DNA from: an uncultured bacterium
GTDB taxonomy: Bacteria > Omnitrophota > Omnitrophia > Omnitrophales > Abzuiibacteriaceae
DNA: 64,000 nt
Direction: 5' to 3'
NCBI GenBank assembly: GCA_964387845.1
Contig: CAYLXA010000008.1
Location: 44,270-108,269, forward strand
Of this stretch, positions 2,944 to 53,426 are shown one piece after another. A program made the position numbers and the translations under genes. The notes under the pieces are model-generated. The model was not told where the DNA came from. It saw only the letters and a program-made list of their open reading frames with translations, and did not search any database. How positions within the stretch are numbered: position 1 is the first letter of the stretch; every line of letters starts with the position of its first letter.

Positions 2944-2962
2944 TTAGCCGAAAAATGAATCT

Positions 2963-3583: not shown

Positions 3584-3590
3584 TCGGAAC

Positions 3591-12236: not shown

Positions 12237-12238
12237 CC

Positions 12239-17964: not shown

Positions 17965-18374
17965 AACAGATTTTCATGGTCGAAGATAATCCCGATCATG
18001 CGTTTTTGATTCAAACCGCAATCGGGGAAGATGACTGCAAAATTACGCATTTTCCGGAAGGGCTGTCGCTATTTGAATTTTTTGAATCAAACCAAAGCCC
18101 CGAAGCGCTCCCGGAGCTGGTTTTGCTGGACCTGAATCTTCCGCAGCTGGATGGTTTTCAGATTTTGAGCAAAATGCGGGCAAATGCGAGGTTAAAACTC
18201 ATTCCGGTCGTCATGCTTACGACTTCGAAAAGGCCGGAAGAAATTAAGCGTGCTTATGAGTTGGGTGCACATGGGTTTGTATCGAAGTCAGAAGATTTCG
18301 GAAACCTAAAGAATCAGTTGGCATGTGTTAAAAATTATTGGCTGAAAACAGTGGAGAAACCGAGCGTCACATGA
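17961..18374 (+). CDS. Single-domain response regulator (REC only)
   Basis: MVEDNPDHAFLI...LVLLDLNLPQLDGF...LTTSKRPEEIKRAYELGAHGFVSK: phospho-acceptor Asp and conserved Thr/Lys present. No output domain. Confidence 0.8.
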   Translation: MKQIFMVEDNPDHAFLIQTAIGEDDCKITHFPEGLSLFEFFESNQSPEALPELVLLDLNLPQLDGFQILSKMRANARLKLIPVVMLTTSKRPEEIKRAYELGAHGFVSKSEDFGNLKNQLACVKNYWLKTVEKPSVT

Positions 18375-23193: not shown

Positions 23194-23211
23194 GGCTGTA
23201 ACACGTAAAGT

Positions 23212-23300
23212 AGGGTCAAGGGTCACGTAGCAAGGGGCAAGGTAAGAATAACAATTTCATTTGCGCCTTGACCTATGACCCTTAGCACTTGACCCTATGG
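23212..23300. promoter_or_regulatory. Cluster of direct and inverted TGACCC/GGGTCA hexamers in the acs / giant-gene intergenic region
   Basis: AGGGTCAAGGGTCAC (23212-23226) and CCTTGACCTATGACCCTTAGCACTTGACCCTATGG (23266-23300). This gives five or more copies of the hexamer in both orientations over about 90 bp. It is a candidate transcription-factor operator or terminator region. Confidence 0.3.
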
Positions 23301-23378
23301 TTTGCCTTCCAAAATCTCCTAATATTATTACTAATAAGTCATAATTAATAACATTTATAACATTTTTAAGTCCTGATA

Positions 23379-23407
23379 TTGAGTTTTATCAGTTTTCGAG
23401 ATATAAT
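23379..23407 (+). promoter_or_regulatory. Putative sigma70-type promoter of the giant gene
   Basis: TTGAGT (23379-23384), 17 nt spacer, TATAAT (23402-23407), about 40 nt upstream of the GTG start. An 8-bp inverted repeat CGAGATA...TATCTCG overlaps the -10 and start region. Confidence 0.4.
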
Positions 23408-23446
23408 TTACCCAATCTTTATCTCGAAAGGATTTCAAGCTCCCCA

Positions 23447-26400
23447 GTGCGCAAAAAGCCATTTTTCATCAAAGCAATTGCCCTAGCGCTTTGCTTTACT
23501 TTTATCGCTACCGATACCATCGCTTATTCCGACGCAGCTCAGACATCTCCGCAACTGGCGGAGATGCTGAAGCAGTCCTCGAACTGGTTGAGTTTGAGGG
23601 CCGCTACCATTTCGGGACTTTTCCGCAACGCCGCACCTTCTGTTTCCGGTACGCGTTTACCTGCCGCAGCTCCCAAGTTCGCCCGTTACTTGTCAGAACT
23701 TCGAAATGAAGCCAATGAAAAACCGGTTACGGCTGACTACATATCCGCTCAAACAATTCAGAATCAAAAAACCAATGAAATTACGCCTCCGCCTCAATCT
23801 GAATTACGCCAAGAGAAGCCCAGATTTAAATCGCGGCACAGCTTTTTTAACCATGCCATACAGTTAAGCCGCAACTTATTCAAGCTTTCAGAGTGGAAAC
23901 ACCGGATTTTGAGATTGTCCAGCAGCTTCGGAAACCTTCCAGATGACATTCTGTTTCTAGTTACAACTCTTCCCATATTGATCGGAATATTGATAGTGGA
24001 TGCTCTTGATAATTTTCATGATAACCCCAAAACAAACGCAAGAATATGGTTCTGGGTTGTTACGAGTTCAGCGGTGTGGCTCTTCTCAGTGTTAACTGCC
24101 AATGTTGTTTTATTCAGATTTCAGAAACCTGCAAAAAGAAAATTGCCGGCAAAATCTGATCAGAAAGTTCAACGATCTGAATTGCGCGGCCATTCGGGCG
24201 TAGGGAGTTATGTCATTGGCGATTTGGAATTTAATAAAGGTGATCCAACCGGCTTTGAATTGATTAAACGGTTGATCGGAGAAGTAAGAGCAGGTCTTTT
24301 AACCGGCGAACTTCAAAAAGCCGGCTTGGATCAAGATTCTATTTCACATATATTCCGGCTTGCTTCTTCGCCTAGTAAAAGTGCGCGCGAGCCAATTGGT
24401 TTCAAATACAGTGAAGCGGCCGGTCAGTTTGAGCTGATTAAAAATGATTTGCGCACCTATCTTCATCAGCTTCAGAAAACACAAAATCATGATCACGAAA
24501 TCAATGTTTATGCGCTTGGGTTAGGCAATCTTCCGGTTGAAGCAGAGGAAGTCATCAAGTTGTTTCTGAACGTCATGGAAGAGGAGCTTGGCGAAGCAGC
24601 CAAAAATTGGTCTTTTAATTTTATCGGAATTGATTTTCAAGACGAACCCATCAAAGTCGCGCGAAAATACTTTGCAGAAGATATGGCTTCTCTAAAAGAA
24701 AAAGGATTCCGGAAAGTCACTTTACAAGCTGTGAAGGCAAACGCACTGTCATCTTCAGAGCTGACGCGGGTATTTGAAGAAACGGGTGGCTCTAAGAAAG
24801 CAGACTATTTATTTCATCGGCATGTGATGTATGTAAACCGTGCTTCAAGTTGGTTAAATCAGCTTCGAGGCCTCACTCCTATCACGATGTTACGGCCTGT
24901 GCTTGCTGACGCGTTGGAGTCGTACCTTCAATCACAGAATTTGATCGGCGCATTTACAAAAACAGGTACACGTTATGTTATTGAACCTCTCGCCAGCTCA
25001 GACCCAAGCATACGGGAAGTTGTCATTCCGGGATCCAGCGTTTTGCCGCAGGAAAATGGCGCAGCCGGCAGCGGGATTTATATTGTGAATGACCCCGCCG
25101 TTTTTACAGCAACCGGCTTCATTCAATATCTCCAGGATCAGCTTGGAGAAAATTTCTCCATCTCCGGCCCTCTTCGGGTCGATCGGACTGGAGGCCGGGG
25201 AGAGCTGCGCCGGGCTTCGAATTTTCATTTTGTAAACACAGTACGCAGAGTGTTGCGGCGGGAAATCGCCCAAATAGAAAAAGACAAGTGGCAAAACTGG
25301 GCAGTTGGTTTTGAGCCTGTGCAAGATGTTGCAAGCCACCTTGTCCGCGGTGCAAAGGGCGAGCTATGGATTCATTTGCACTTAACCTACCACGGACATG
25401 ATAAACGTGCTCGTTTCGCCGAAAATGGCGTCTATGACTTGGGATTGCTTTTCCGGATAACCGATCGAGAGAATCAATTAACTCTTGATGCCCCCATGAT
25501 TGAACCGCAAATAGGCCGGTCTGACTATTTTGCTTTTACACGCGCCGAAACGGTGCTTTCTTCCGAGCAGGCGGCCCGGCTTGTGAAGGAGGGAACGGAA
25601 TTTGTCAATTCGCACGCCGGTCCGATCCGCAGTGCAATGCGTCTTGCCAAGAAAAAACCGAGCTCAATTCATAATCTATTGGGCCGTGCAGTATCGCCCC
25701 GGCACGCACGAGGCCTTTACAACATGATGACATTAGGGCATGAGGAAAAGCGTGTGATTGACCGTACAAAAAGGCGCTCGGTTACTTATCGGTTTGTGGG
25801 CAGCCGGCGAAGCGAGCTGCGTCAAAAATCGGAATTAGATTCGGCCCGAGAGTTTGTGGCTCACGCTATCCAAACCGGCCAATTGAAATTAGATCTGTTT
25901 GATCGGGGAAGGGAGCCTGCAAAACAAATTCTTCAGGAAGTTTTAGCTGAAAATCAAAAGCGAAAAACGGATCATATTCAAGAAGTCGAAACCGCAAGGC
26001 ACAAAATAGCAACTTTCGAATCAAGGTTCAAAAAAATCCGTGATGAAATTGATTTTGACCCGTTTAAACCTCTGGCGCCGACGGAGCAGGAAAAAATCAT
26101 GGAATGGTGGGCTGATGACCTGTACATGATGGAATATGAAATCAGAAATTATTTAGCCGAAATTCAGTCGGGGCAGCATCCGTTTTCAGGAAACGAATTG
26201 GATCAAGTAGTGGATGCTTTAATAGCCGCTTACCGGTGGAGTATGGATGTTGTTGCTTTTTTTGAAAAACAAAAAGCAGAACTATTATTCTTTCGAAATC
26301 AAGAGACCACCGACAGCGAAGAGTCGGCCGATACCATGGCGGCACTTTCAGGCGCATTTTCAGTTTTAGCCGACATCAAATCTCCGCGCGGACAAATCCC

Positions 26401-29400
26401 GGAAAATGTTTTTTTTGCCATAGCTGCAACCAAGCGCCACAAAGCGAAAGAATTTTTACTTTCTGTTCTTCGTGAGATTGGTTTCGATAAAACAAAATCC
26501 GAAACCCAGAAAATCGTGAGAGGAAGGGCGCTTAATTATCTGTTTGCCCACTTTCACAGCTCGGAACTTGCAGCACTGGCCCGGCAGGCAATTGAAAATT
26601 TAGGCAGAGAGCAAAGATTTGATTACGATGGCTGGGCATTTGATAGCGCGTTCATGGAACTTTTGCCTTATCTCGGAGATGAGAATGTTAAAGCGTATAT
26701 TTTTAATTACTTAAAAGATGATTTTCAATTCGGAAAAGCTCTCGAAGCTGGGAACTGTTTGGAATACTTGCTGTTCGATTTAGAAACCGCGGAGGTCCCG
26801 GGTTGGTTTAAGGAGCGCTTGCAGATTTATTCGGAAAAAAATGCAGCGGCTATGGATGATTTTGGAATTACGGAAAATCAGGAAGCCTATTTAAATCGAA
26901 TTAAAAAATTAAATGATTTTCTAGCTCTAAAAGAAGCCGGAATCGGGCTGCCGTCTTATCAATTTTCAAAATACGTTTTTCGGCCTATTCATTCACAGGA
27001 TGAAATAGACACACTGCGCAAAATGAGCGGTTCATTTCCCGGACGACGCCCTGGTTGGAGCCCATGGGATATGACCGATTTTGTATTGGAAGATAGCAAG
27101 ACCCGTCAAATTGTCGGAGGCGGCATGATTTCGGAGCATGACTACGACACAGAAGCGCACCATATTCATCTTGTTGCTCTGAGTGACCAGCTGCAAGGCC
27201 GGGATAGGGCAGATGCGTTTGTGTTTATTCTCGCCGGCATGTTGCAATCCATGTCGCCAAAAATCAAAGGCCGGAAAGTTGTTTGGCGCACATGGGTAAA
27301 AGATATTCTGGAAAAGACACTCGCGCTTGATTTGGCGGGCGTTGATTTAGAACCTCTCATCAATCAAAACCCTGATGATGCACGCTCGGAATTGCTCAGT
27401 AAGCCTGAATCGCAGAATCCTATCCTCGAAATCAATCAAGATTGGCGAAACATTTTTGATGACAACGCAAAACCGCTGGTGGTGGATGTCGGGTTCGGAA
27501 ACGGAGAAACACTGCTTTACCGAGCACAGCACGAGCCGGACAAAAATTTCATCGGTATCGAACTTCCCGAAGAGCCGTATGCGGATATGCTGGCTGAAAG
27601 GATTCAAACAGTGGGAATCAAAAACCTAAAAGTCCTCAAAGTGGCTGATTTTGAGGCATTTCGCACTCAACTCAAATTCGGGAACCAAGCAATCGTTTCA
27701 GAGCTAACTTATTACGATCCGTTTCCGGATAGTCCTTATGTATTTAGAGAACATACCGCTGATTTACAGCAAATTTTAAAACCCGGCGCGCTCGTTAAAA
27801 TCATGGTTTTTGAACACGAATTTTGGCAAGAACTGTCCGGCATTTTTGAATCCAACGGATTTCAAACGCTAAATCCTGCCGACCATGTTTTTGAGGATAA
27901 TCATGATACGCAGGATTCAAATGAGGCATTTAGCACTCAACTGAAACTTATTTTCCGATGGCCCGGTCTATCATCAAATCGTTCCGAATTGCGCCAAGAC
28001 CTCAAAATTCAGACGATTCTAAACGATATTGCCCAAAGCAGATTGATTTCGGAGAATCAGCCGGAAACTCGGTCTTTTTTTAATAGAATTTCGGATCGGT
28101 TAAAACAAAAATCAGTTTCCCAAACTTTCTTTTTGACCGGATTGTTACTTTCATCTTATGTCTATATTTTATTCGAGCGCTGGCTTGCTGCCGAGCCGGT
28201 CGAATCGAATGCTCAAGAAATAGCTGCCGCCATTTTACTATTGGGCATTATTTCTACGATTTTTACCACGATCGTTAAGAGAATGAATAAGTCTAGTACA
28301 TCCTGGCGCTGGGATGTTATTAGCTTTTCGGAAAATCAAATCATAGAAGATGCATTGACTTTTCTGGACCCTCACAAACATCAATTAAATCCCAATGTGG
28401 ATATTATTGTTGAGAAAAGAAGCCACAGGTTTAAGCGTATTGCCATCGGATTTTTCAAAGAAAGTTTAAAAAATCTTGGCGCCGGTGCAATGTTTTTATT
28501 GATAGGAGGCTTTTTAGCTTGGAAAATTGGATACGGCCTTCTTGATTTGTACAAGCAAGACCTGCACGCTGCATTTAAAGTCCCTGTCTATGGCATATTC
28601 GGCGCGGGGCTGATTGTGTTTGGTTTTGTGGGCATGATGGGATTTACCGTGCTTTTTCTATCTCCGTTCATTGCTCTTATGCAGGCTTGGGATGGAGAGT
28701 TTTCAGATAAGGGAATCGAGGACCAAAGAATTTTTGTCCAGCACCAAGAATCCGAAGATGTTTTTTACGAGACGCTAGTTGAAGAATTAAATCACCGTTT
28801 CAAACTCCGCCGAGAGCCGCTTCCGGAGTTTCCAAAAACACTGGATGGTTTGCGGCTCGCCATGATACTCAAACGCTACGGCCTCCCCGGCAGTGAAATT
28901 GCGAATCGTTCCGCCTCCGGCCTCCTCCGGGTCTTGCGCCCTGAAGGGTCAGAGACCGCAGACCGTAACGCTCTCCGAGCCAACGGCTCGATGGAGCCGA
29001 GGGCACGGGGGGAACTTCGGCAGTCGGAACCTCGGAAGATGAGCAGGGCTGAGCTCGCCTCTTTATTCAGGGCGCAGCTACGCGAGGCGAATTTCATTGC
29101 ATCGATACCGGTGTTGATACAACACGTATGGAATGTAATCGCCAAATTAGCAAAGCCCCTCAACTTCCAGTTTCGCGAACTAGGCCTAACGCAAGAGCTC
29201 CTCCGTTTGCAGACAGGGTTTTGGATCACCCGATTTGGGCCTGAAGACCGGATGTGGTGGGGACTCCGCGACGGCATGAAGTTCGGAGATACCGTTAATT
29301 GGTGGGGGCCTAAACAAAAAAGACCGGAGCCCCTGGGTTTTCATACCGGGATTGATTTTGTGATGTATCAAAATTTTCAAAAGGCCTGGAAAACAATTCC

Positions 29401-32400: not shown

Positions 32401-35400
32401 AAAAATTGAAGACATCAGCCAAACATCTGATTCAAAAATTCACCGGATTACGGTGCGCGTACCGGAAGAGCAGAGTTTTCCGCTTCGCGGTATTGAAATT
32501 CTAGCACGCGAATTAATTGAGAATCCATCCGCTGAACAGCAGTTTGATCTTGTTTACAATGAGAAAGGACATTTGTTGGCTGTATTTCCCGTTTTTGGAA
32601 ATGAAAATAGGGCCGCTGCGGAGGATGGCTTATTTCTTGATGTCAGTCCGTACTATTTTGAAGTTCCGAAGGACATTCGAGGAGAGTCGAAACTCCTGAT
32701 AGATCAATTTTTGCGCGAGTGGAGACAAAACCAACAGCATATCCAAGCCTATCAAAAAAAGCATTTCGGTTCTAATCGGATGAATTTCTGGCATTTTAGT
32801 TATAACAATGACGAAAATAATGATGAAGATAATAAAGAGGAGCCTCTTTATCAGTTTTATCATTTACTTCATAGTCACGGCCATGATCTTAGTTATTTGG
32901 GGGAAGTTGAAGTTCAATCTTTGGAGCATATTTTTTACTACGTTAGTAAAGATCCGGATAGGAAAATGTTATTGTTACCAATTTTCCCAACGGTCTTCCC
33001 GCCATCCGGCGATCCCCAGCACGACACGGAATATCATAAGGCTATTTTGATCGATCCCAGATTTGATTTAAATGAGAATCAGCGGACTCTTGTGGTAGGT
33101 TCCGGAAGCGGATTTGACACATGGCTTGTTTCCCTCAAAACACGCAAGACCGTGAGTGTAATTGACATTAATCCACTGGCGGTAGCCAACACAAAAGCGC
33201 TTGCGAAAATTGCAGGCTTCAAAGTTTTAGCTAGAACGGCTGACAATATCGTCGATGAAAGCGGAAAGCCCACTTTTCCAGATGCCCGGTTTGATCGAAT
33301 TATTTGGAATATGCCCGAGCATGTTGAAGGTGATGGGCCCAGCCACGGGCAATTAGCAACCCAAAGGACCAAGTGGTATTTAACAGATCATTGGGATGGC
33401 GACGTCGATGGTTTCAGCTTGACCCGGTTTGCTTCAGGGCTTTGCGACATTTTAAATCCTGACTCGCGCGTTTTAATTTGGAATTCGAATAACGAAGATT
33501 CAATTTTGAATGCCTTTGAAAACCGCGGCATGGAAGTTGAACGTGCAGGCCTCAATTATCGGTACAGTTTGTATTTTATTCAACCATCTGCCGCTGCAGG
33601 CGAGCTTTTGGAACCGATTTCTAACTCTGCAGATCAACGAAGCGAACCTCAAAAACACATTGCCGTGCTTCAACGGTTCAAGCACAATCCGACCGGATTT
33701 ATGGGGTGGCTCAAGAACGAAATCGCCGAAGTTTTGACAATCATTGACATGCCGAGCGGTCAGTTTATGAAACTGCCTGATGCGGAAAGAAGGAAGAAAA
33801 ATCAACGTATTGAAAACGCAATTTCCATGCTTTACGGCGTAGAAGATTTTATTTCGGCTAAAGATGCGGCAAAAATTATCAAGAATATTGACGAGGCACG
33901 CCGCATGTTGGACGAGATTTACCAAATGTCCGAATGGCGTAAAAATGATTTTTCCGCTATCCGCGGAGGGAAGCAAGATTCCAAACTTCCGGCAAGCACC
34001 GAGCAAGCGTGGCACGCACGGGATATTTTTAACGAATTTCTTCCGAAAAATGGGCTAGGAGAAGCGCTTCAGAAATACACGGGGGATAAAAAAGTATTGG
34101 ATACCGCAGCGGAGAAATGGCTGCCTGTTTTTACGCGCGTTCCGAAACATTTATTCATGCCGAAATATTTGCGGCAGGATGCTTATTTGCATGATGCGCC
34201 GTACCGAATCGGTTATGGCCAGACAATCTCACAACCGTCTCTGGTTGCATTTATTCTGGCGCTGCTTGATTTAGAGCCCTCGGATGAAGTTTTGGAAGTC
34301 GGCGCAGGCAGCGGATGGTTGGCCGCGCTGATGTCGCAGCAAGCGGCGCATGTCTATGCGACAGAACTCATTCCGCAGCTTGCGGGCCGTGCGGAGCGGG
34401 TGATTGAGAATATGGGAATTCAAAATGTCAGCATTGTTGAAGCCGATGGTTCGGTTGGTTATCCACAGGCGGCTCCGTTCGATAAAATCGTCGTTTCAGC
34501 CGGCAGCCCCAATGTTCCGGAACTGCTTGTGAACCAGCTCCGCGAAGGAGGCTTGCTGATCATTCCGGTTTTGGATCCTGCAGCGTCAAAAAAGCAGAAG
34601 TCTTACAAGCTGACATTATTTGTGAAAGAAGGCGGTAAATTGACAGAAAAACTTGCCATCGATAGGGTTAATTTTGTTGATCTGCGCGGTGTGCACGGTT
34701 GGCAGCCGGCGCCAAAACGTTCCGAGCTTCGCCGAGCCGCACAGCCGAAAGATTCAAACAGTGAAAAATCAACGCCGAAGCCCGAGACCGAGTCAGACCG
34801 GCGCATCATCCGGGCAGTTAATTATTTTCTGAAAGAAAAGAGGCCATTCAATCAAGGCGATATCGCCAAAAAAGCAAGAGTCAGCTTGCAAACGGTTACA
34901 AACCGGAAGCACGCAAATCCGTCGATCGCTCGGTTTGTTGATTGGGCCCTGGAGAAAGCGCCTAAGGCTGAGCCTAAATCCGTTCAAGCTCTAATCCGGG
35001 CCGCAAAGCAGTTGAAAAAAGAAGGAAAATCGGGCGTGACCAATTCAGTTGTTGCGGACCTAGCCGGTTATCATCCACAAACCGTTACCAGCATAAGCAA
35101 GTTATATCCTAAGGTAAAACAAGCTGTGCAGGGGGCGCGTCAATCTCCGCACGCACAGATTTCTCCCACGATTCAGAAAGTTGTGGATGTTATTAAAGCG
35201 GCCGCGAAGAAAAAACAAGTGTTTCAAAACGAAGGCCAAATCGCGCAAGCAGCCGAAATCAGGCCTGAAACGTTGAGCCGGATTAAGAAGCGGCGGTCCT
35301 CCTATCGGGAACCATTTCTCCAACTGCTTCAATACGCCGTAAGCGACCCGGACCGTGCGCTTGAGATCATTAAAAAACACTTCTCGATTCATTCCGAACA

Positions 35401-38400: not shown

Positions 38401-38992
38401 ACAAAACAGGTTGGATGCCGTCATTCATGAAATCCGGAATAATTCATCAAGTGCCGTACGTTCAGAATTAAAAGTTCAGAGCGAGAAATTGGTTCAATTT
38501 TTAACCGGCGGACAAAATAGAGCCACGTCATTGTCGGGCACTGCCGAAGCTGCCAACGCGCGCTCGGCGTTTGTCTTTTTGCCCGGAACCACCAATGAGC
38601 TGGGCGCTGTTTTTAACCAGATTACAGAAGCTCTTGCCGCCAAAAGCGAATTGAGAGCCGAAATCATTGCTTACGTGGATGGCCCGTTGATGGCGCGCAC
38701 AATCCGTGAAATCATCCTCGGTGTTCAGGGCGCTGAGCGTGTCCATATCGTGGCGAGTAATGAAGAGGCCGTGGCTAAAGCTCAGTCTCTAAACGTTGCG
38801 CATGCACATTTGATCGGATGGGAGGGGGAGCTTGAAGCGCCGTTTGTCCAAAATTTGGAGGACAGCTACCTGAAGCTCGGTATTCGCGTGGTGAAGAAAA
38901 ATGTAAGTGATTTCATGAGTTTTCTCGGGCGTGAGGCCGCTCGTTTTATCCAAGGATGGAAATCAGCAGTTCTCTACGCCAAATCCGCATAA
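23447..38992 (+). CDS. Giant (5181 aa) secreted/membrane-anchored mosaic protein with about 18 [RK]SELR linker motifs, 3+ methyltransferase domains, an M23 peptidase domain, HhH and HTH modules, and FYN-G beta-repeats
   Basis: Uninterrupted 15,546-nt ORF. N-terminal signal peptide MRKKPFFIKAIALALCFTFIATDTIAYS. TM clusters at about 23.84-24.12, 28.09-28.69, 31.0-31.35 and 35.46-35.83 kb. Recognisable modules: TrmB-like MTase (VVDVGFGNGETLL...FIGIEL), M23 (GFHTGIDF...PHLHLSIGW), RpoA-alphaCTD-like HhH (ISRLNIRYRLQRRIRQAGIRTVGQLVDL), MTS-type MTase (LVVGSGSGFDTW...FDRIIWNMPEH), PIMT (GQTISQPS...VLEVGAGSGW...PFDKIVVSAG...GGLLIIPV), 3 x HTH, 6 x FY(N/D)xxGxLL repeats. Confidence 0.85.
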   Translation: MRKKPFFIKAIALALCFTFIATDTIAYSDAAQTSPQLAEMLKQSSNWLSLRAATISGLFRNAAPSVSGTRLPAAAPKFARYLSELRNEANEKPVTADYISAQTIQNQKTNEITPPPQSELRQEKPRFKSRHSFFNHAIQLSRNLFKLSEWKHRILRLSSSFGNLPDDILFLVTTLPILIGILIVDALDNFHDNPKTNARIWFWVVTSSAVWLFSVLTANVVLFRFQKPAKRKLPAKSDQKVQRSELRGHSGVGSYVIGDLEFNKGDPTGFELIKRLIGEVRAGLLTGELQKAGLDQDSISHIFRLASSPSKSAREPIGFKYSEAAGQFELIKNDLRTYLHQLQKTQNHDHEINVYALGLGNLPVEAEEVIKLFLNVMEEELGEAAKNWSFNFIGIDFQDEPIKVARKYFAEDMASLKEKGFRKVTLQAVKANALSSSELTRVFEETGGSKKADYLFHRHVMYVNRASSWLNQLRGLTPITMLRPVLADALESYLQSQNLIGAFTKTGTRYVIEPLASSDPSIREVVIPGSSVLPQENGAAGSGIYIVNDPAVFTATGFIQYLQDQLGENFSISGPLRVDRTGGRGELRRASNFHFVNTVRRVLRREIAQIEKDKWQNWAVGFEPVQDVASHLVRGAKGELWIHLHLTYHGHDKRARFAENGVYDLGLLFRITDRENQLTLDAPMIEPQIGRSDYFAFTRAETVLSSEQAARLVKEGTEFVNSHAGPIRSAMRLAKKKPSSIHNLLGRAVSPRHARGLYNMMTLGHEEKRVIDRTKRRSVTYRFVGSRRSELRQKSELDSAREFVAHAIQTGQLKLDLFDRGREPAKQILQEVLAENQKRKTDHIQEVETARHKIATFESRFKKIRDEIDFDPFKPLAPTEQEKIMEWWADDLYMMEYEIRNYLAEIQSGQHPFSGNELDQVVDALIAAYRWSMDVVAFFEKQKAELLFFRNQETTDSEESADTMAALSGAFSVLADIKSPRGQIPENVFFAIAATKRHKAKEFLLSVLREIGFDKTKSETQKIVRGRALNYLFAHFHSSELAALARQAIENLGREQRFDYDGWAFDSAFMELLPYLGDENVKAYIFNYLKDDFQFGKALEAGNCLEYLLFDLETAEVPGWFKERLQIYSEKNAAAMDDFGITENQEAYLNRIKKLNDFLALKEAGIGLPSYQFSKYVFRPIHSQDEIDTLRKMSGSFPGRRPGWSPWDMTDFVLEDSKTRQIVGGGMISEHDYDTEAHHIHLVALSDQLQGRDRADAFVFILAGMLQSMSPKIKGRKVVWRTWVKDILEKTLALDLAGVDLEPLINQNPDDARSELLSKPESQNPILEINQDWRNIFDDNAKPLVVDVGFGNGETLLYRAQHEPDKNFIGIELPEEPYADMLAERIQTVGIKNLKVLKVADFEAFRTQLKFGNQAIVSELTYYDPFPDSPYVFREHTADLQQILKPGALVKIMVFEHEFWQELSGIFESNGFQTLNPADHVFEDNHDTQDSNEAFSTQLKLIFRWPGLSSNRSELRQDLKIQTILNDIAQSRLISENQPETRSFFNRISDRLKQKSVSQTFFLTGLLLSSYVYILFERWLAAEPVESNAQEIAAAILLLGIISTIFTTIVKRMNKSSTSWRWDVISFSENQIIEDALTFLDPHKHQLNPNVDIIVEKRSHRFKRIAIGFFKESLKNLGAGAMFLLIGGFLAWKIGYGLLDLYKQDLHAAFKVPVYGIFGAGLIVFGFVGMMGFTVLFLSPFIALMQAWDGEFSDKGIEDQRIFVQHQESEDVFYETLVEELNHRFKLRREPLPEFPKTLDGLRLAMILKRYGLPGSEIANRSASGLLRVLRPEGSETADRNALRANGSMEPRARGELRQSEPRKMSRAELASLFRAQLREANFIASIPVLIQHVWNVIAKLAKPLNFQFRELGLTQELLRLQTGFWITRFGPEDRMWWGLRDGMKFGDTVNWWGPKQKRPEPLGFHTGIDFVMYQNFQKAWKTIPEGTEVQALYGGTVVSVFQDDMQSTLVVNQEITDTDGGNTLVTIYAHIEPETNVQPGVKIEAGDVLGRIRRSRNERSIVSPHLHLSIGWAKPEFFERLKSDGVDWPFVDALAKEGLLTYVDPLTFLDKNEADHFFMNAQHNKLKKILILNTQPGAQFFLTRQVIEKQFPGVTTLAVRSFEEAQKILNDPSSEIDAVVRVDESASISFPRKYLKRTAVLDYQEKNKREFLRQLHVVNVIGRLYHEPISRLNIRYRLQRRIRQAGIRTVGQLVDLANLPKKFRKFTTGLSKVPEGLERRLQGSRYKDEIIRAIVSVQPQAILTRSILHRRSLGFFQMAYRLTFGFEYHPETRNFAELILFLNGLSGSVFKELVKQFDVHIQTDLIDILQRVARIAPEAISVNVLEMFIDDEETPKRMRENFNTLADLIHMARNDTKRFKEIFGYQISWHVLLLLLEILYDAVPGEIMWQEWPDLVHTVLNPHNLPRTFGSGGLSGHINAYSAAIQAHWRRLMAEHKGYAKRKDRSELRQAGDRQIFQRAFQGIAFGGYGAGLIAATWQMLTVYPQMLRPSLFVILLTWNFYQIVKLILKQPFVSQEKINQEKYINRQLIITHLPQLGLIKAHMLAPWLEAFMQAPEVGALFLTVSGLLVSKLAFDSYLRNDGRASGRSELRTNDPEEPNAKNPRTSTYETIISNRPQMNPTESNTEQASLFMAPLENVTPDAVRWLDRVFNSRLPKGQYVFVGVVVDRKSKDIQAFQDGVYMIAKFLEVGGAFEEIGLNEIKNKKLRRRITAVGKGSSVRVIEFASVGGGDDYEIPLRRLQGVVEDYYSNEPIVWIPISPEGELSSTLGWKPKNRAFHLTLVHQAPEQEPEARSELRNDGGIILEAGQQIKAVEGYQMQLQENGSVAFYRERLSSPEPDPVEVVKPTMAGMPVYDEAGNIMGYVGITHDFEGQGEDRKLIARTAFYPEPEFDIEKTHVPSTWPAWELLKAVGLLIPKEDAHILKIEDISQTSDSKIHRITVRVPEEQSFPLRGIEILARELIENPSAEQQFDLVYNEKGHLLAVFPVFGNENRAAAEDGLFLDVSPYYFEVPKDIRGESKLLIDQFLREWRQNQQHIQAYQKKHFGSNRMNFWHFSYNNDENNDEDNKEEPLYQFYHLLHSHGHDLSYLGEVEVQSLEHIFYYVSKDPDRKMLLLPIFPTVFPPSGDPQHDTEYHKAILIDPRFDLNENQRTLVVGSGSGFDTWLVSLKTRKTVSVIDINPLAVANTKALAKIAGFKVLARTADNIVDESGKPTFPDARFDRIIWNMPEHVEGDGPSHGQLATQRTKWYLTDHWDGDVDGFSLTRFASGLCDILNPDSRVLIWNSNNEDSILNAFENRGMEVERAGLNYRYSLYFIQPSAAAGELLEPISNSADQRSEPQKHIAVLQRFKHNPTGFMGWLKNEIAEVLTIIDMPSGQFMKLPDAERRKKNQRIENAISMLYGVEDFISAKDAAKIIKNIDEARRMLDEIYQMSEWRKNDFSAIRGGKQDSKLPASTEQAWHARDIFNEFLPKNGLGEALQKYTGDKKVLDTAAEKWLPVFTRVPKHLFMPKYLRQDAYLHDAPYRIGYGQTISQPSLVAFILALLDLEPSDEVLEVGAGSGWLAALMSQQAAHVYATELIPQLAGRAERVIENMGIQNVSIVEADGSVGYPQAAPFDKIVVSAGSPNVPELLVNQLREGGLLIIPVLDPAASKKQKSYKLTLFVKEGGKLTEKLAIDRVNFVDLRGVHGWQPAPKRSELRRAAQPKDSNSEKSTPKPETESDRRIIRAVNYFLKEKRPFNQGDIAKKARVSLQTVTNRKHANPSIARFVDWALEKAPKAEPKSVQALIRAAKQLKKEGKSGVTNSVVADLAGYHPQTVTSISKLYPKVKQAVQGARQSPHAQISPTIQKVVDVIKAAAKKKQVFQNEGQIAQAAEIRPETLSRIKKRRSSYREPFLQLLQYAVSDPDRALEIIKKHFSIHSEQRVSVQASAQDENLRSELRADGAIQDPGMVVTALIGVAAFGILIFGFDSVRERAFKVGSAALKLIRRLFWLWTGVLWISTHLAYAAHRVRPDSQDKIYQATGFDPGDLNYSEFLYPWAIFTVFIYPVAAFGLMRYLNRLVMRRNVLPFETSPSRSIPAHPTTSELDINRKVGTAQPSDQYSKDPLMKGRAELRASGSNPKKKDTSKATDLEKRFKELLEEADRTLEANKQLEDGLDEIHKVLPELPKDIIDGRSELRQSDPIGTASALPGPLAKSELRNFLPNQNPINRLDAKQGSGIGARGNVLEGRSGSNSEFYNYRGEKVLVLPTSTAKGILGLGDFIVVMPRPKPGTQDHILFYNSSGSLLFEAVNVSDYSLVGENMAIKFANGNIQFYDKTGKKLLSSFDHFSNFHPSQIDLQGDLLVFKKSSNEVGFYNSTGSLILRKSKGTDFDSFYVKGSFIVLVKKDNHHVYSGLTGKLIAKTQASVGETAQFDGDFFAVVNWNEFTFYNLQGKKILEKRTGSGDDNFINWSGEGGLLTFDKTHSRTFYDENGKLLAAIQKRVFASRVVNKVLRLEDNADFYEWYDFSPNALSASSKGQKSLDQIFSHNPAMLSRIRDYVKRRYDNPLMSREEPNHDLSSDLDDASNLIQLEKMPTEWIDDLSSLVLTGYNPSDKGARSILKEAAIQLGLIQAPSSQTKEAVPITYNQKALMRILSSGVITEAIRNGQFSFPTTGKRSSLIFLSDDGTNVKRIDETDSAKANVQLEFYLSSDNRTVGVSISVRDDNKASGWRVQHEEPKQLKDLQTSIEPASSKPSLTIVSARKQRTLDELINKVSKFPGWSNPGPSTYSFAHQATQISAFYTGIVPNLQPRWAWHLKVISSGYNLSVVVEDHIQSPGKWITVVKFNNSGSNNSVASQEWGNHLIDIEQNGLKTNIYMTKAYVDSLVKNRIPLKGATIDGVEWEFIPINPKQILPAKSELRTQAEQVSIETLDAALSVEPKAQNRLDAVIHEIRNNSSSAVRSELKVQSEKLVQFLTGGQNRATSLSGTAEAANARSAFVFLPGTTNELGAVFNQITEALAAKSELRAEIIAYVDGPLMARTIREIILGVQGAERVHIVASNEEAVAKAQSLNVAHAHLIGWEGELEAPFVQNLEDSYLKLGIRVVKKNVSDFMSFLGREAARFIQGWKSAVLYAKSA

Positions 38993-42486: not shown

Positions 42487-42492
42487 GAACGA

Positions 42493-46381: not shown

Positions 46382-46410
46382 TTGACAGTGTTTTGAGGAT
46401 TGAATATCAT
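46382..46410 (+). promoter_or_regulatory. Putative sigma70-type promoter
   Basis: TTGACA (46382-46387), 17 nt, TATCAT (46405-46410), upstream of the 46544 secreted-protein gene. Confidence 0.45.
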
Positions 46411-46543
46411 CGCCTCACTGGGGGAGGCCCAGCCAAAGCAATTCTCGCTTCATTCATTAAAATTAAATAATAATTTGAAATATTTATTTTTTAAATTAAA
46501 TCAAACAAAAGCCAAATCAATCATCTCAAGCGGAGAAAAACCA

Positions 46544-47095: not shown

Positions 47096-47142
47096 TCATC
47101 ATGCGTAAATCACAGCTCATAAAATCAAAGGGACCTGTCACC

Positions 47143-48731: not shown

Positions 48732-51700
48732 ATGAAAGTTATGCAAGGCCAAAAATATACCGCTCACCTTAAATTTGTTTCCTTATTCTTAATTATCACA
48801 CTTCTTTTAAACTCAGTTGCTTGGGCAGATCCGCCGAACGCTCATTTCTCGAAACTACCGCCCCATGTTTCGGTTTCTCATGTTAGTGAACCGATTCAAC
48901 TCCGCGATTTAAATGTCCTCGTTGATTACTTGACCGCCGACTTAAAGAACGAAGTTAAAATTGATATATCCAAAGAAACAGGAATCATTCGATCTATTTT
49001 ACGACATGATTCGCATTCTAGCCCTTTTGATTTTGATGTTGTTTTAATTCAGGATGCGCATGTCGATAACGAAGCGCAAACCAATATTCGACAAATTCTT
49101 CATTCTTTGTCAAAACAGATCGACCAACCGTTACTTATTGCGTTGGAGGGTACGAGCGGAAATTTAGAACCGAATATATTAAATTTCTTTCCGGACTATC
49201 CAAAAATCAATTCAATAATTGTGGAGGACTTGGAAAAGAGGGGAGAGCTGACAGGCGCTGAACGCTTCGCGTTTGAAAATCAACGGAATAAAACGCTTCT
49301 GGAATTTTGGGGGGCCGAAAACATTGATCAATACAAACAAAACCTTTCCGAATTTCGAGACGCTCTTCGGTTTTTTATAAATCATACCTCAGAACTCGAG
49401 CAAGCTGAGAGCCGGCTTGCCGGATTTCGCAAGCAAATTTTGAATCCTGAATTATGGTTCTTCCTAGAAAAGAGGGATGCTTTTTTAAAGGAAGAAGTTG
49501 ATTTAGCTGCTTATCTTACTTTTCTTCAGAGTGAGGCGATTCAGCATATAAAGCTTAATTTAGCCGATATTAAGCACCAATTTGATTTTCCAAATCTGGT
49601 TCGCTTTTCAAAACTTAAATACGAGGAAAATAAATTAAATCCTGAAAAGGCTTTGGAAGAATGCAGCAAACTTCTCTCTCTCGTTCAGAAGGAAATACCG
49701 AAAGGAAAAATTCAAAGTTATCTAACAGAACATCTCTGGCATCTTTCAAGAGATGTTTCTTTGCAACTGCCACAAAGTTCTCATCAAAATTTTTTTACTT
49801 CTGACCGACCTGTTATTACAGAAAAATCGCCGAACGTACGAGAGTTGTTTGAAATACTTCACGCTTCTTCGTTTATCTACAAATTTTCATTAGTACCGTT
49901 TCGAAACCTCATCCGTCTCGGACGTTTTTTGGCATTTCAATCGGAAATTGATGCCGCATCATTTTTTCAGGAGGTCCGTAAATTAGAAAGTTTGATCATT
50001 CGACGATTGGCCAAAACGCGCGAAGAGAAAAGACTTTTAGCTGCTGTGACTCGATGGAATTTGGTAAAAAAACTTTATGCACTTGAACTCAGTCGTTCGG
50101 AATTTTTGGATTATCAAAAATCGAAGCCACGGATATTAAAAACAATCTTGCGCTTTTTCCCCGCGCTTCCGGCGCCTGCACTTTCAGAAAAATTCTACGA
50201 TGGAGCATTAAAGCGCGACCATGTTCTTGTCCAAAACGCGCTTAATCATGCGGCCGGACGGCCCGTCATCATGGTAGCGGGCGGGTTTCATGCTGACGGA
50301 ATCGAATCTTATCTTCAAGACAACAATTTATCGTACGCAACCATTTCTCCGTCTATCAAAAACCCGAGCAAAGACCGCGAATCCTATTTTAAAACCTTTC
50401 AAGACGAAAACATCTCCTTTATTGTGGATATGCTGCGCACGAGCAATCCCGGCTTTTTTCGATCTGTCCGCGGCGAAAGACAATTCAATCTATTCGCTTT
50501 GGCAATTAGAAATCAGGAGGCCAATTTAGTTCGCATTTATTCTTTGACCCCCGAACAAGCGCGCTCGGAAATCAGGCAGGCGCTGGATCGGTGGCGTTTT
50601 CAATCCAGATCGGAATTGCGGCAAGACAGAAGTACCATTGTTACACCTGATAAAATCGAATCAAATTTTTCCAACAGTTCAGCAAGTCGCGCTCGAGAAA
50701 CGATCATTCCTCAAAGAATTCATCCCGGCACAATTGAAAAAATGCAAATTCCGTGGAGTTACAAATTAAGTCCAAAGTATTTTTGGAATTATCACAAAGC
50801 TTTAAGCCTGTCGGGCCTGGTTGTTTTTGGCCTGCTTTTATTTACAGCCGTAACCGGAAGAATTTTAGAACCGTTTACTGTTTTTTACTCCACGGTTTTT
50901 GCAGGCCTTTTAATGGCTCAAGCGGCCCGGTTTATCAAGAACCTCCTGATTCCTCCGGCGCATTATGTCATGCGAGATGACGGTGTCGCATTATTAGATA
51001 CTCATAACATAGAAATATTAAATCAAATCGTCTATCAATCCGAGATTCCATCCGCGATTTACATTGCCGTTGAAGATCAATTTGAAGGCAAAGATGAGAA
51101 AAGGCCGAATTATGAGGCCGTAAAAGCCTATGTTGAATTTCGCCAGGGATCATCACAGGGGTTTCGAAAAGTGAAAATCATTCCGCTCAGTAGATTGGGG
51201 CGGTTGTATTACACAAACCTTTACAATCAAAATCAAACCGGTGTGAAAAACATCATTTCAAGAAGTTTTCTCTTTGTGTGGAAATGGAAATTGTGGATAT
51301 GGATGCCTTTACTGCTTCCGGTTTGGTTGGCCGCAAATTTTCTCACGTTTGGTTATCTCAATCACGATTCTTTAATTCATTTTTACGGCGTAAAACCATT
51401 GCAAGGATGGGTAAGCTTGACGGATGTATCCGAATGGCTTCTGCATCTCAAATGGAGTTTTCTGCATCGAATCGAAATTCTCTTGTTCCTGGCGAATGAT
51501 TGGTTTAACAACACAAACAGCCTGTCCCCATGGTTTCAAACTATCGTATCGAATATTTTAACCAATCTAAGCGCCAAGTTATTTTCGTTATCAGAAACGC
51601 CGGGGTTATTCAGCTTGTACGCGGCAAAAGAAAAGGCAACAGACTACATTGCCTGGACTACGGTGATGGAGTCACTGACGTTTATCAGTTTTTTAGGTTT

Positions 51701-53426
51701 GGTAACGTTGGCGATGCTTTGGCTCCATTGGCAGCGGAGCCGCGAGAAAATTACTTATACGTTAACTGGCAAATCGCTTCCTGCGAAAGGAAAAATAAAA
51801 GGAATTTTTAATATAGGACTGATATCAATTCTGTTTTTAGCGGTCCCGGTTTTAATAGCCCCTCTCACCAATGGATTTATTTTGAGCCCGGTTGCGCAAA
51901 AGGCAATTCAGAATGACTTTAGCGAAGACAGGTCTTCGCTGGGTTTTATGTTTAAATATGCGGTTGAGCGGCAAGAGAATATTCGAAAAGATGATGAGGG
52001 ATTGAGAAGAGTGTTTGTGAAACTTCTCGAAAAGTTTGGGAAGGACGAAGATTTCACCAAAAACGGAGCATTTGACAAATATTTTGGGCGGCTCGGTCTG
52101 CAGGAATTTGAGTTTTTGATTAATCAATATCCGGAAGCGCGAACAGGGCTTTTGCAGTTATTAATCAAAGATCTGAACTTAGATCAAATTTTATTAACAC
52201 CCGGTATGGCGGCTCAAAGATTTCCTGGAAGCATTCAAGTTAAAGACAAGATCGACAAAATAAAGAATGTTAAATTGCCGGCAGATTTGAAAAAATTAAA
52301 ATTAGTTTTTGAAAACATGATTCAAGAATGGGAATCGGGAGGCAGCGAGCTTTTCAATGATCTTTTGAAGATCCAGGTTTTTGCGTTTGAAGATCAATAT
52401 TCTCCACTTTATATTGTTCCCTTAGGAGAAGAAGATCAGCTGGAAAAGTTTTTGAAGAATCTTGGAGAATTTGAAAAACCTCAGCAAGGGACAGAGGCTT
52501 TAGTTCCGGCATTGATTAAATTGGCCAAGAAGATGAGTTATTTGCCAAAAATAAGCCTGCAAGTGCCCAAGGCTAAAGATTTCAACCGGTCAGAGTTGCG
52601 CAAACCAACTTCGCGTTCTCAAATTTTATCGCGAATGCCGGATCATAACAATAAACATATTCACCATGCACTAAGCGCACGATTTTCATTTCAAGCTTCC
52701 GTGCTTTTTTTAGGAATTTTACCGGCCGCGTTCTCTGGAATTTCACCACCCGCCGGAAGACCGAATTTTGGTCTGCAGTCTTTACAGCATGAAGATTTTC
52801 AAGCAGTGATCCGATGGCTGCGTGAAAAAACGGATTCGCGGCTCAAAAAACAAGCAATTGAGTATTATACCGGTTTTTTTCAAGCGGAGCCCTCAACCGT
52901 TCCACAAACCATTATTCTTACGAGCGATTTGTTAACCCCCGAAGTGGTTGATGGAATTAACCAAGTAAGCTTAAATCCAAACGCAAAAATCATCGTTTAT
53001 GATGTAGGTGATTTAACAGCGCGATCCCTTCTTCCGCAACTTATCCGTGCGTCAGTTCGAAAAATATCAAAAAATGGCGCGGGATTTGATATCAATCAAT
53101 TCTTAAAAGAGGAAGTGCGCTCCGATAGATTGCCGCATACCGCTGTCTGGACAACGGAAACACATTTCGCAGATATTGAAAAAAATAAAGGTTTTCAATT
53201 TGTGGCGAAAAATCAATTGATGCGCGACGACAAATTGCGCGGGGCAGCGCTTTTATTACAATTCTTGCTCGTTCAGTTAGTTGCCAAACTCGGCATATTT
53301 CCTCAAAATCGAGACGAACTTTGGAAAAGAACATCCGACAATCGAATTGAATTTAATTTAACCAATCGAATTTTACAAATCCAAATGATTCATTCGGAAA
53401 TAAAAACGCTGCTGAGTTTTGCTTGA
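48732..53426 (+). CDS. Large (1564 aa) secreted/membrane hypothetical protein carrying two RSELR motifs, in a low-GC segment
   Basis: Uninterrupted 4.7 kb ORF. N-terminal signal/TM region (FLIITLLLNSVAWA), internal TM cluster at about 50.78-51.85 kb, mostly predicted helical. RSELR at 50607-50621 and 52587-52601. GC is clearly lower than the flanking housekeeping genes, with a very AT-rich upstream region. Confidence 0.75.
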   Translation: MKVMQGQKYTAHLKFVSLFLIITLLLNSVAWADPPNAHFSKLPPHVSVSHVSEPIQLRDLNVLVDYLTADLKNEVKIDISKETGIIRSILRHDSHSSPFDFDVVLIQDAHVDNEAQTNIRQILHSLSKQIDQPLLIALEGTSGNLEPNILNFFPDYPKINSIIVEDLEKRGELTGAERFAFENQRNKTLLEFWGAENIDQYKQNLSEFRDALRFFINHTSELEQAESRLAGFRKQILNPELWFFLEKRDAFLKEEVDLAAYLTFLQSEAIQHIKLNLADIKHQFDFPNLVRFSKLKYEENKLNPEKALEECSKLLSLVQKEIPKGKIQSYLTEHLWHLSRDVSLQLPQSSHQNFFTSDRPVITEKSPNVRELFEILHASSFIYKFSLVPFRNLIRLGRFLAFQSEIDAASFFQEVRKLESLIIRRLAKTREEKRLLAAVTRWNLVKKLYALELSRSEFLDYQKSKPRILKTILRFFPALPAPALSEKFYDGALKRDHVLVQNALNHAAGRPVIMVAGGFHADGIESYLQDNNLSYATISPSIKNPSKDRESYFKTFQDENISFIVDMLRTSNPGFFRSVRGERQFNLFALAIRNQEANLVRIYSLTPEQARSEIRQALDRWRFQSRSELRQDRSTIVTPDKIESNFSNSSASRARETIIPQRIHPGTIEKMQIPWSYKLSPKYFWNYHKALSLSGLVVFGLLLFTAVTGRILEPFTVFYSTVFAGLLMAQAARFIKNLLIPPAHYVMRDDGVALLDTHNIEILNQIVYQSEIPSAIYIAVEDQFEGKDEKRPNYEAVKAYVEFRQGSSQGFRKVKIIPLSRLGRLYYTNLYNQNQTGVKNIISRSFLFVWKWKLWIWMPLLLPVWLAANFLTFGYLNHDSLIHFYGVKPLQGWVSLTDVSEWLLHLKWSFLHRIEILLFLANDWFNNTNSLSPWFQTIVSNILTNLSAKLFSLSETPGLFSLYAAKEKATDYIAWTTVMESLTFISFLGLVTLAMLWLHWQRSREKITYTLTGKSLPAKGKIKGIFNIGLISILFLAVPVLIAPLTNGFILSPVAQKAIQNDFSEDRSSLGFMFKYAVERQENIRKDDEGLRRVFVKLLEKFGKDEDFTKNGAFDKYFGRLGLQEFEFLINQYPEARTGLLQLLIKDLNLDQILLTPGMAAQRFPGSIQVKDKIDKIKNVKLPADLKKLKLVFENMIQEWESGGSELFNDLLKIQVFAFEDQYSPLYIVPLGEEDQLEKFLKNLGEFEKPQQGTEALVPALIKLAKKMSYLPKISLQVPKAKDFNRSELRKPTSRSQILSRMPDHNNKHIHHALSARFSFQASVLFLGILPAAFSGISPPAGRPNFGLQSLQHEDFQAVIRWLREKTDSRLKKQAIEYYTGFFQAEPSTVPQTIILTSDLLTPEVVDGINQVSLNPNAKIIVYDVGDLTARSLLPQLIRASVRKISKNGAGFDINQFLKEEVRSDRLPHTAVWTTETHFADIEKNKGFQFVAKNQLMRDDKLRGAALLLQFLLVQLVAKLGIFPQNRDELWKRTSDNRIEFNLTNRILQIQMIHSEIKTLLSFA

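Follow-up and report, generated by a model that had tools for sequence, protein, structure and literature searches.

Giant proteins with many transmembrane (TM) segments and many enzyme domains, methyltransferases being among the commonest, have been described in Omnitrophota (10.1101/2023.11.21.568195; 10.64898/2026.06.07.730766). These Archaeovorin-type or signal peptide plus TM (SP+TM) giants are mostly singletons dark to Pfam for which post-translational cleavage is suspected (10.1101/2023.11.21.568195; 10.64898/2026.06.07.730766), and it is an open question in this literature whether each of them acts as one polypeptide or is divided into numerous products. Their N-terminal regions "generally lack identifiable domains" and topology predictions for them have been called unreliable (10.1101/2023.11.21.568195). 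The stretch of DNA analysed here (64,000 nucleotides of contig CAYLXA010000008.1, hereafter the window) encodes a protein of 5,181 residues, hereafter the giant, which resembles them in phylum, in having a signal peptide and many TM helices and in its mosaic of divergent enzymes. With 5.2 thousand amino acids (kAA) against >30 kAA (West-Roberts et al. 2023) and at least 10 kAA (Nielsen & Lui 2026) it is a small relative of the known Omnitrophota giants, one-sixth or less of the length of those of >30 kAA. The giant is punctuated by a short recurrent peptide, R-SELR, which very probably delimits its modules. Our preferred reading, to which we give a probability of about one half, is that the giant is a Sec-targeted, membrane-tethered polyprotein with the motif as its probable proteolytic processing site. 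An original prediction made for this DNA overlooked the motif and judged the fusion of methyltransferases behind a signal peptide to be highly unusual; since multi-enzyme, multi-TM giants with methyltransferases were already known in Omnitrophota (10.1101/2023.11.21.568195; 10.64898/2026.06.07.730766), it is unexceptional there.

The motif occurs 16 times in the giant as [RK]-[SGA]-E-L-[RK], with two further copies of SELR preceded by L or Q bringing the total to 18, alongside the degenerate variants RSELL and AGELL. The consensus at the junctions is x-[AG]-[RK]-S-E-L-R-[QNA], with unconserved flanks in which Pro, Ala and Ser are mildly enriched. Exact SELR is present 14 times compared to 0.15 in shuffled sequences and [RK][SGA]EL[RK] 16 times compared to 0.10, while the background rate (16 instances in 942,163 residues of open frames from 77 unrelated loci) predicts 0.09 for the giant. 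Elsewhere in the window the in-frame motif is confined to the open reading frame (ORF) 48732..53426, which encodes a protein of 1,564 residues with no detected similarity to the giant except the motif. The Ser, Leu and Arg codons of the motif differ between instances, which argues for selection on the peptide. That SELR arose from a DNA-level repeat or by mobile insertion is excluded, as the codons differ at every degenerate position, and internal domain duplication is excluded by self-BLAST, which finds nothing. The motif divides the giant into ~14-19 modules of 21-903 residues, with enzyme-sized soluble modules alternating with small membrane modules of 2-4 helices and with the motif on each side of all four TM clusters (Table 1). 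The copies at residues 4238 and 4259 form a close pair. The giant lacks both the divergent SecA DEAD-like domain and the N-terminal C39 or S8 peptidase of Archaeovorin-type giants, with no Pfam match to SecA-DEAD, C39 or S8 at E<=0.01 in the whole protein or, when nine modules delimited by the motif were scanned, at E<=1.

One module of the giant, in which an uncharacterised alpha/beta domain is joined to an amino-methyltransferase-type Rossmann domain (the X + MTS-like module), has 184 relatives, including the giant itself, in an exhaustive HMMER search with residues 2856-3385. Many of these are 2,000-7,800 residues long and those bearing a source name are Candidatus Omnitrophota (NCBI). By de novo k-mer counting, some of the large relatives have a recurrent peptide of their own, spaced 100-500 residues apart. 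The peptides fall into the classes A-R-S-E-x-R (17 copies against a shuffle mean of 2.1 in P0074, 10 against 1.0 in P0088, 11 in P0158), [GS]-S-S-P-[VIL] and [SA]SP[VIL] (13 against 0.37 in P0099, 11 against 0.28 in P0023, 14 against 0.53 in P0089, also in P0124, P0087, P0022 and P0058), G-A-R-L-A (nine against 0.44 in P0117), [AS]-G-F-G-[AF] (10 in P0008) and G-A-L-A-P-R-A-A (six against 0.01 in P0039). The classes are mutually exclusive between proteins, and the homologous X + MTS module is flanked by RSExR, SSP[VIL] or ARLA depending on the protein. The upstream motif lies ~6-45 residues ahead of the start of this module in 8 of 11 proteins and inside it in none, sitting roughly where stand-alone homologues have their signal-peptide cleavage site. 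The same boundary placement was seen for HATPase_c in P0088, APH in P0023, and a GDSL lipase and a methyltransferase in P0117, and over five proteins none of 51 motifs fell within a recognised domain (P=3e-6 for uniform placement). Of 76 members of the X + MTS family, 11 had a 4-mer recurring at least six times; in unrelated genomes this held for 4 of 125 long open frames.

The three methyltransferase motif blocks identified in the original prediction lie where it had placed them and share one frame of the giant ORF, and the Methyltransf_4, MTS and PCMT matches all exceed the Pfam gathering (GA) threshold, MTS marginally. As judged from the aligned residues, the catalytic and S-adenosylmethionine (SAM)-binding motifs are intact in all three modules and degenerate in none. 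The modules had been described as three distinct folds; class-I Rossmann-type methyltransferases share one fold, of which these are three families. They have the class-I fold and SAM motifs in common with free-standing Pcm, TrmB, HemK2 and PrmC but, unlike those enzymes, are embedded behind a signal peptide. A curated equivalog cutoff is reached by the PCMT module alone, and by this measure the TrmB-like and MTS-like modules are not orthologues of tRNA or release-factor enzymes.

In the TrmB-like module the motifs VDVGFGNG (27482-27505), FIGIEL (27548-27565) and DPFP (within 27710-27733) comprise motif I, the acidic residue after beta2 and a variant of DPWP. Methyltransf_4 (PF02390) matches residues 1342-1454 (E 1.2e-11, 44.8 bits against a GA of 24) and the top PDB match is the TrmB structure 1yzh (E 1e-7). 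The module falls below the equivalog cutoffs of TIGR00091 (54 against 112.65 bits) and NF001080 (41.2 against 132) and is therefore not a TrmB orthologue. The alignments end at profile position 124 of 173 and PDB residue ~128, corresponding to the N-terminal two-thirds of TrmB, and neither the basic stretch after DPWP nor the C-terminal substrate-binding third of TrmB was detected in the PDB and NCBIfam alignments. In typical TrmB the stretch reads DPWPKKRHxKRR, in place of which the module has DPFPDSPYVFREH. A degenerate RSELL stands at the start of the module ~12 residues ahead of the domain and an RSELR 5 residues past the domain end; no relatives of this module were found for a second bracketing test.

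The X + MTS-like module carries LVVGSGSGFD (33089-33118), VIDINPLAV (33158-33184) and FDRIIWNMPEH (33290-33322), giving it the signatures GSGSG, DN and WNMP. Pfam MTS (PF05175) passes marginally over residues ~3207-3295 (24.6-27.1 bits against a GA of 23, E 2e-5 to 4e-6), and the match to the HemK2 equivalog TIGR00537 spans the full model at 38.3 bits against a cutoff of 87. The (D/N)PP(Y/F/W) tetrad is replaced by W-N-M-P-E, as had been noted for NPPY in the original prediction. Among 58 relatives GxGxG and DN are kept and W-N-M-P is conserved in at least 80%, being near-invariant, such that the replacement is not a decayed NPPY but the signature of a distinct family. The AlphaFold2 (AF2) model of the module has a predicted TM-score (pTM) of 0.85 and in Foldseek matches N6AMT1/HemK2/KMT9 with probability 1.0 (target-normalised TM-score 0.65-0.77), as well as RsmC, GenN, PrmA and Asc-Orf2; on this model it is a class-I Rossmann fold nearest to N-methyltransferases, from which it differs by its added N-terminal domain and W-N-M-P. 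Stand-alone X + MTS proteins are ~430-540 residues long and most of those inspected begin with a cleavable-looking signal peptide, as such being predicted to be secreted. A word-indexed search with residues 2856-3760 returned P0001 as its sole match. Between the RSELR at residue 2856 and the conserved start of the module are ~105 residues (2856-2961; 32012-32330) with no motif inside and no equivalent in relatives, which may be an extra small domain.

The PCMT module, predicted to be a protein-L-isoaspartate O-methyltransferase, was called a near-textbook Pcm, and this description holds. Pfam PCMT (PF01135) matches residues ~3556-3746 (E 2.5e-49, 168.3 bits against a GA of 20.3), the PDB entry 1jg1 matches with E 3e-35 and is aligned from the substrate loop through the C-terminus, and GQTISQPS (34217-34240), VLEVGAGSGW (34289-34318), ATELIP, EADGSVGYP and PFDKIVVSAG (34475-34504) all align with the protein-L-isoaspartate methyltransferases of P. 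furiosus and M. jannaschii. The module barely passes TIGR00080 (160.5 against 159.05 bits) and misses two other equivalog cutoffs (173 against 188 and 174 against 282). Its nearest relatives are free-standing Pcm enzymes of ~185-310 residues with 39-53% identity, the module is full-length, and it looks like a captured, functional housekeeping Pcm. An RSELR follows 5 residues past the domain end.

A fourth, weaker Rossmann-like stretch had also been proposed and stayed below threshold in every test (Methyltransf_31 16.8-21 bits against a GA of 27; best PDB E 0.3; no match in NCBIfam). In the Peptidase M23 module the zinc ligands are HTGID (residues 1966-1970) and HLH (residues 2066-2068). Beyond the named domains, relaxed scans of the giant (Pfam at E<=1, NCBIfam) gave just sub-threshold helix-turn-helix (HTH) and Rossmann hints.

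Table 1. Features of the giant and of the second punctuated protein, with positions in the window (aa, residue number in the respective protein).
Feature	Position	Strand	Basis
Giant ORF, 5,181 aa, GTG start	23447..38992	+	ORF calling and translation
Signal-peptide-like N-terminus, aa 1-28: RKK, hydrophobic core, AYS/DA	23447..23530	+	sequence features
SELR, aa 83, L at -1, weak instance	23693..23704	+	motif scan
SELR, aa 118, Q at -1	23798..23809	+	motif scan
TM cluster 1, aa ~166-223, two helices; motifs at aa 118 and 244 on either side	23942..24115	+	hydropathy
R-SELR, aa 244	24176..24187	+	motif scan
Possible fourth Rossmann/methyltransferase-like stretch (ALGLGNL ... FIGIDFQDE), aa 353-400	24503..24646	+	sub-threshold matches
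R-GELR, aa 585	25199..25210	+	motif scan
R-SELR, aa 789	25811..25822	+	motif scan
TrmB-like class-I methyltransferase module, aa 1314-1512	27386..27982	+	Pfam, PDB and NCBIfam matches
R-SELR, aa 1513	27983..27994	+	motif scan
TM cluster 2, aa ~1560-1747, about four helices; motifs at aa 1513 and 1855 on either side	28124..28687	+	hydropathy
R-GELR, aa 1855	29009..29020	+	motif scan
Peptidase M23 module	29336..29671	+	Pfam PF01551, 39.6 bits against GA 28.7, E about 1e-9
R-SELR, aa 2507	30965..30976	+	motif scan
TM cluster 3, aa ~2521-2638, 3-4 helices; motifs at aa 2507 and 2650 on either side	31007..31360	+	hydropathy
R-SELR, aa 2650	31394..31405	+	motif scan
R-SELR, aa 2856	32012..32023	+	motif scan
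X + MTS-like module, aa ~2962-3385	32330..33601	+	relatives, conservation, AF2, Foldseek
Degenerate A-GELL, aa 3385, in disordered tail of X + MTS model	33599..33610	+	motif scan, AF2 model
PCMT module, aa ~3556-3753	34112..34705	+	Pfam, PDB, NCBIfam
R-SELR, aa 3759	34721..34732	+	motif scan
Module aa 3759-3999 with three HTH-like stretches	34721..35443	+	sub-threshold HTH matches, E 0.004-0.17
R-SELR, aa 4000	35444..35455	+	motif scan
TM cluster 4, aa ~4011-4117, 2-3 helices; motifs at aa 4000 and 4174 on either side	35477..35797	+	hydropathy
R-AELR, aa 4174	35966..35977	+	motif scan
R-SELR, aa 4238	36158..36169	+	motif scan
K-SELR, aa 4259	36221..36232	+	motif scan
Beta-rich module aa 4259-4960, repeated FY(N/D)xxGxxL pattern, no family	36221..38326	+	sequence, Pfam, NCBIfam
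K-SELR, aa 4961	38327..38338	+	motif scan
R-SELK, aa 5006	38462..38473	+	motif scan
K-SELR, aa 5067	38645..38656	+	motif scan
Second punctuated protein, 1,564 aa	48732..53426	+	sequence and motif scan
TIKI-superfamily head domain, aa ~46-587	48867..50492	+	alignment, Pfam, model
Tandem R-SEIR / R-SELR after head, aa 611 and 626, 15 residues apart	50562..50624	+	motif scan
R-SELR, aa 1286 of the second protein	52587..52604	+	motif scan

The second punctuated protein consists, in order, of a signal peptide, a head domain, RSEIR/RSELR, a TM cluster, a soluble part, RSELR and a C-terminal part, and its head is encoded 10 kb downstream of the giant. The TIKI family includes sequence-specific endopeptidases, and the head has the TIKI alpha/beta core fold. 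Pfam PF04187 (Tiki superfamily, ChaN) matches 6 of 15 aligned heads with a best E of 5.7e-8, the window copy reaching E 0.064, and across these 15 sequences D108, H110, Q116, E139, E414, R495 and H520 are invariant. D108-x-H110, E139, R495 and H520 parallel, in order and spacing and not by superposition, the residues essential in RRSP (E3900-x-H3902, E3930, R4001 and H4030; PMC6254334), the first acidic residue being Asp and not Glu. The head is therewith predicted to be an active TIKI-family hydrolase. A homologous head directly follows the signal peptide in ~20 large relatives, including RSExR-, ARLA- and GFG-class proteins with intact N-termini, and among relatives in which a motif was recognised and the N-terminus is intact, the majority have the head at the giant's own N-terminus. 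The first motif of the RSExR- and ARLA-class proteins comes 24-111 residues after the head, as would be expected of a self-freeing leader protease. That the head is the protease which cuts the motif is nevertheless doubtful, for reasons given below.

The N-terminus of the giant, M/V-RKKPFFIKAIALALCFTFIATDTIAYS/DAAQ, looks like a Sec signal peptide and hydropathy alone gives ~11-13 hydrophobic helices in four clusters, with the helix count uncertain in clusters 3 and 4. If the giant is a Sec-targeted polyprotein, the signal peptide would bring the chain to the Sec machinery, the hydrophobic hairpins would keep it in the membrane, and an endoprotease would recognise the motif and cut at or beside it, with R↓S being plausible by analogy with sites of basic P1 and small P1′. 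Cutting would turn the modules into separate products, soluble enzymes as well as small membrane proteins, at the outer face of the cytoplasmic membrane, and the freed enzymes might act outside the producer as secreted or prey-directed effectors, in which case the SAM-dependent methyltransferases would effectively work inside a prey or host cell. A predatory or epibiotic lifestyle has been proposed for Omnitrophota, in agreement with effector function. The odds that the motif is a cleavage site appear evenly balanced, while it is moderately likely that the modules are extracytoplasmic. The extension to many Omnitrophota giants, as true polyproteins whose RSExR, SSP[VIL], GARLA, GFGA and ALAPRAA peptides would be cut by cognate proteases (the TIKI head in some lineages), is more tentative and falls short of even odds. 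The notion of effectors delivered outside the cell was also part of the original prediction and gains support for the MTS-like module from the signal peptides on most inspected free-standing homologues. Nothing points to the self-modifying mega-enzyme that it offered besides; the R-SELR punctuation argues for separate units, probably freed by cutting.

A number of observations weigh against processing of an exported chain. Cleavage is, for the giant and for every related protein, something that we infer from sequence. Species-representative genomes and JGI metagenomes yielded no close orthologue of the giant against which conservation of the sites could be compared. Charge-bias analysis found K/R-rich segments both before and after TM hairpins 1 and 2, which by the positive-inside rule suggests cytoplasmic flanks and conflicts with a cleaved signal peptide; for the exported protein of the original prediction, hydropathy and charge bias give an ambiguous topology on which signal peptide and positive-inside rule disagree. 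SAM-dependent enzymes and HTH-like modules have no obvious periplasmic cofactor or substrate. No recurring peptide was detected by k-mer and gapped k-mer counts in some four-fifths of the large relatives, P0003, P0005, P0007 and P0077 being among the giants without one. As for the head, seven SSPx-class giants have neither it nor, apparently, a signal peptide, and 14 head-bearing giants have no detectable motif, the peptides after the head not recurring in them, such that the head is neither necessary nor sufficient for punctuation and was rejected as its universal correlate. The clustering of heads in the RSExR class could reflect mere organismal relatedness. Membership of the TIKI superfamily does not by itself make the head a protease, since esterases and a haem-binding protein belong to it as well. 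The seven SSP[VIL]-class giants (P0099, P0089, P0124, P0087, P0023, P0058 and P0022, some of which are truncated) have no obvious signal peptide and may represent the punctuated design in a cytoplasmic form, its motif being read by something else.

It has to be considered that the chain is not cut at all, the motifs being non-proteolytic linkers (docking sites for chaperone, secretion, insertion or scaffold factors, or helix caps insulating adjacent modules) and the enzymes remaining tethered to the membrane like beads on a string in one polypeptide. The boundary evidence suits a linker motif equally well, and in the head model a helix ends at the motif and gives way to disorder; five invariant residues amid unconstrained linkers with small or basic flanks are in turn reminiscent of a protease site, and small membrane modules of 2-4 helices with the motif on either side are better accounted for as separate products. 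No protease consistently co-occurs with the motifs. A shared protease or other module was not found among the RSExR-class giants, which have the X + MTS module alone in common with the window giant, and there is no conserved partner gene in the neighbourhoods of P0074 and P0158. The classes are however wholly different between lineages, as are the cleavage sites of polyprotein lineages, and the motif in giants stands where stand-alone homologues have their signal-peptide cleavage site. The V. archaeovorus giant has mapped proteomic peptides, with cleavage an open question in the literature (10.1101/2023.11.21.568195). Taken together an uncleaved chain is somewhat unlikely.

An array facing the cytoplasm, in which the hydrophobic clusters anchor the chain as hairpins and every soluble module, the three methyltransferases included, is cytoplasmic with access to SAM, proteins and nucleic acids and there is no exported effector, is less probable again. 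The K/R-rich flanks of hairpins 1 and 2 speak for it, as does chemistry of a cytoplasmic type (SAM methyltransferases, a housekeeping-type Pcm with cytoplasmic nearest relatives, HTH-like stretches), while the canonical-looking signal peptides on the giant and on the 1,564-residue protein and the cleavable-looking ones on most inspected stand-alone X + MTS homologues do not fit it. M23 peptidases cut peptidoglycan, which lies outside the cytoplasm. In a recent survey giants with TM segments only were read as cytoplasm-facing, whereas the Pfam content of SP+TM giants was assigned to the periplasmic side (10.64898/2026.06.07.730766). That the giant is an artefact of chimeric assembly or of separate genes merged into one ORF is very improbable, for although the sequence is metagenome-derived and without a close orthologue, a stop-free frame of 15.5 kb at 47% GC is not explicable by chance, domain matches lie in one frame over the entire ORF, a protein of identical sequence (P0002) is recorded on a 108-kb contig at NCBI, a Logan run yielded an independent assembly of the flanking region, dozens of relatives share the design and composition is uniform through the gene and its neighbours.

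Further systems offer partial parallels to a processed giant. MARTX toxins are likewise large secreted proteins whose unrelated effector enzymes are released by interdomain proteolysis, and the MARTX effector RRSP is a TIKI-family endopeptidase of the same superfamily as the head domain (PMC6254334). Their processing is attributed to an inositol hexakisphosphate (InsP6)-activated cysteine protease domain (PMC11296635), which was undetected in the window giant; MARTX toxins also differ in having no internal TM-hairpin modules, and within them RRSP acts as an effector and does not do the processing. Mycoplasma hyopneumoniae P97/P102 adhesins are large surface proteins cut at S/T-X-F↓X-D/E in disordered regions by a protease unidentified as of that report (PMC3322551), with one to few sites each and with cleavage shown by mass spectrometry, compared to the enzyme array and putative cleavage of the giant. 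The flaviviral junction (K/R)(K/R)↓(G/S/A) resembles [RK]↓S, by analogy only. Viral polyproteins such as those of flaviviruses and nidoviruses alternate enzymes, including methyltransferases, with small membrane modules, their junctions bear a short consensus of basic or small residues that is specific to the lineage, and leader or embedded proteases are common among them. Unlike these the giant is a chromosomal gene among haem-biosynthesis genes, with no viral hallmark and with a protease that is a candidate only.

Punctuation motifs, their lineage classes, the W-N-M-P secreted methyltransferase family and a TIKI-like head are not described in the two reports on Omnitrophota giants (10.1101/2023.11.21.568195; 10.64898/2026.06.07.730766), the word "Tiki" occurring nowhere in the latter, and in the literature collection searched no paper joins Omnitrophota with "polyprotein". 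A five-residue rule that recurs at every module junction, is lineage-specific and avoids domain interiors would make the question of cleavage directly testable, and would show where such proteins can naturally be divided for annotation and structure prediction. In addition two uncharacterised families are defined, a predicted secreted X + W-N-M-P methyltransferase with 184 relatives and a TIKI-like head with an intact catalytic set. Were cleavage true, one giant gene would deliver a set of secreted enzymes and small membrane proteins, and the motif would supply the cleavage points so far missing for giant proteins; were the modules exported, SAM-dependent enzymes including a repair methyltransferase would serve as extracellular or prey-directed effectors.

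Upstream of the giant are hemA, hemC, cobA/hemD, hemB and acs and downstream a bona fide hemL (TIGR00713), followed by macB, macA, a tolC-like gene, ispH, gltB and gltD. The giant gene therefore lies inside a haem-biosynthesis cluster (window 12083-16948 and 39039-40304), and the RSExR-class giant P0158 (locus L083) likewise lies mid-way in a purine-biosynthesis operon (purB-C-S-Q-L-F / giant / purM-D-E), such that giant genes seem to be lodged in housekeeping operons. The window appears to be of Omnitrophota origin, its GltB being 77-83% identical to that of four metagenome-assembled genomes, two of them labelled Candidatus Omnitrophota, and <=74% to everything else. No homologue of the giant or of the 1,564-residue protein was found at related Omnitrophota loci around gltB, and a scan of the window gave no structured RNA at the Rfam gathering score. 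Just downstream of the giant on the minus strand (40492-44758, -) are a MacB-type ATP-binding cassette (ABC) transporter, a membrane-fusion protein (MFP) and a TolC-like outer-membrane factor, while a 231-residue protein without family and a BBP2-type beta-barrel porin are directly 5′ of the second SELR protein (46400-48474, +); either set could be a candidate outer-membrane export route. The giant has just 3 cysteines among its 5,181 residues (0.06%). A histidine kinase, a stand-alone receiver and a hybrid receiver-kinase are encoded between hemB and the acs/giant genes (16936-19585). The 254-nt AT-rich intergenic stretch 5′ of the giant (23194-23446) has repeated GGGTCA/TGACCC-type elements, recognised by eye, which could be the acs terminator or an operator.

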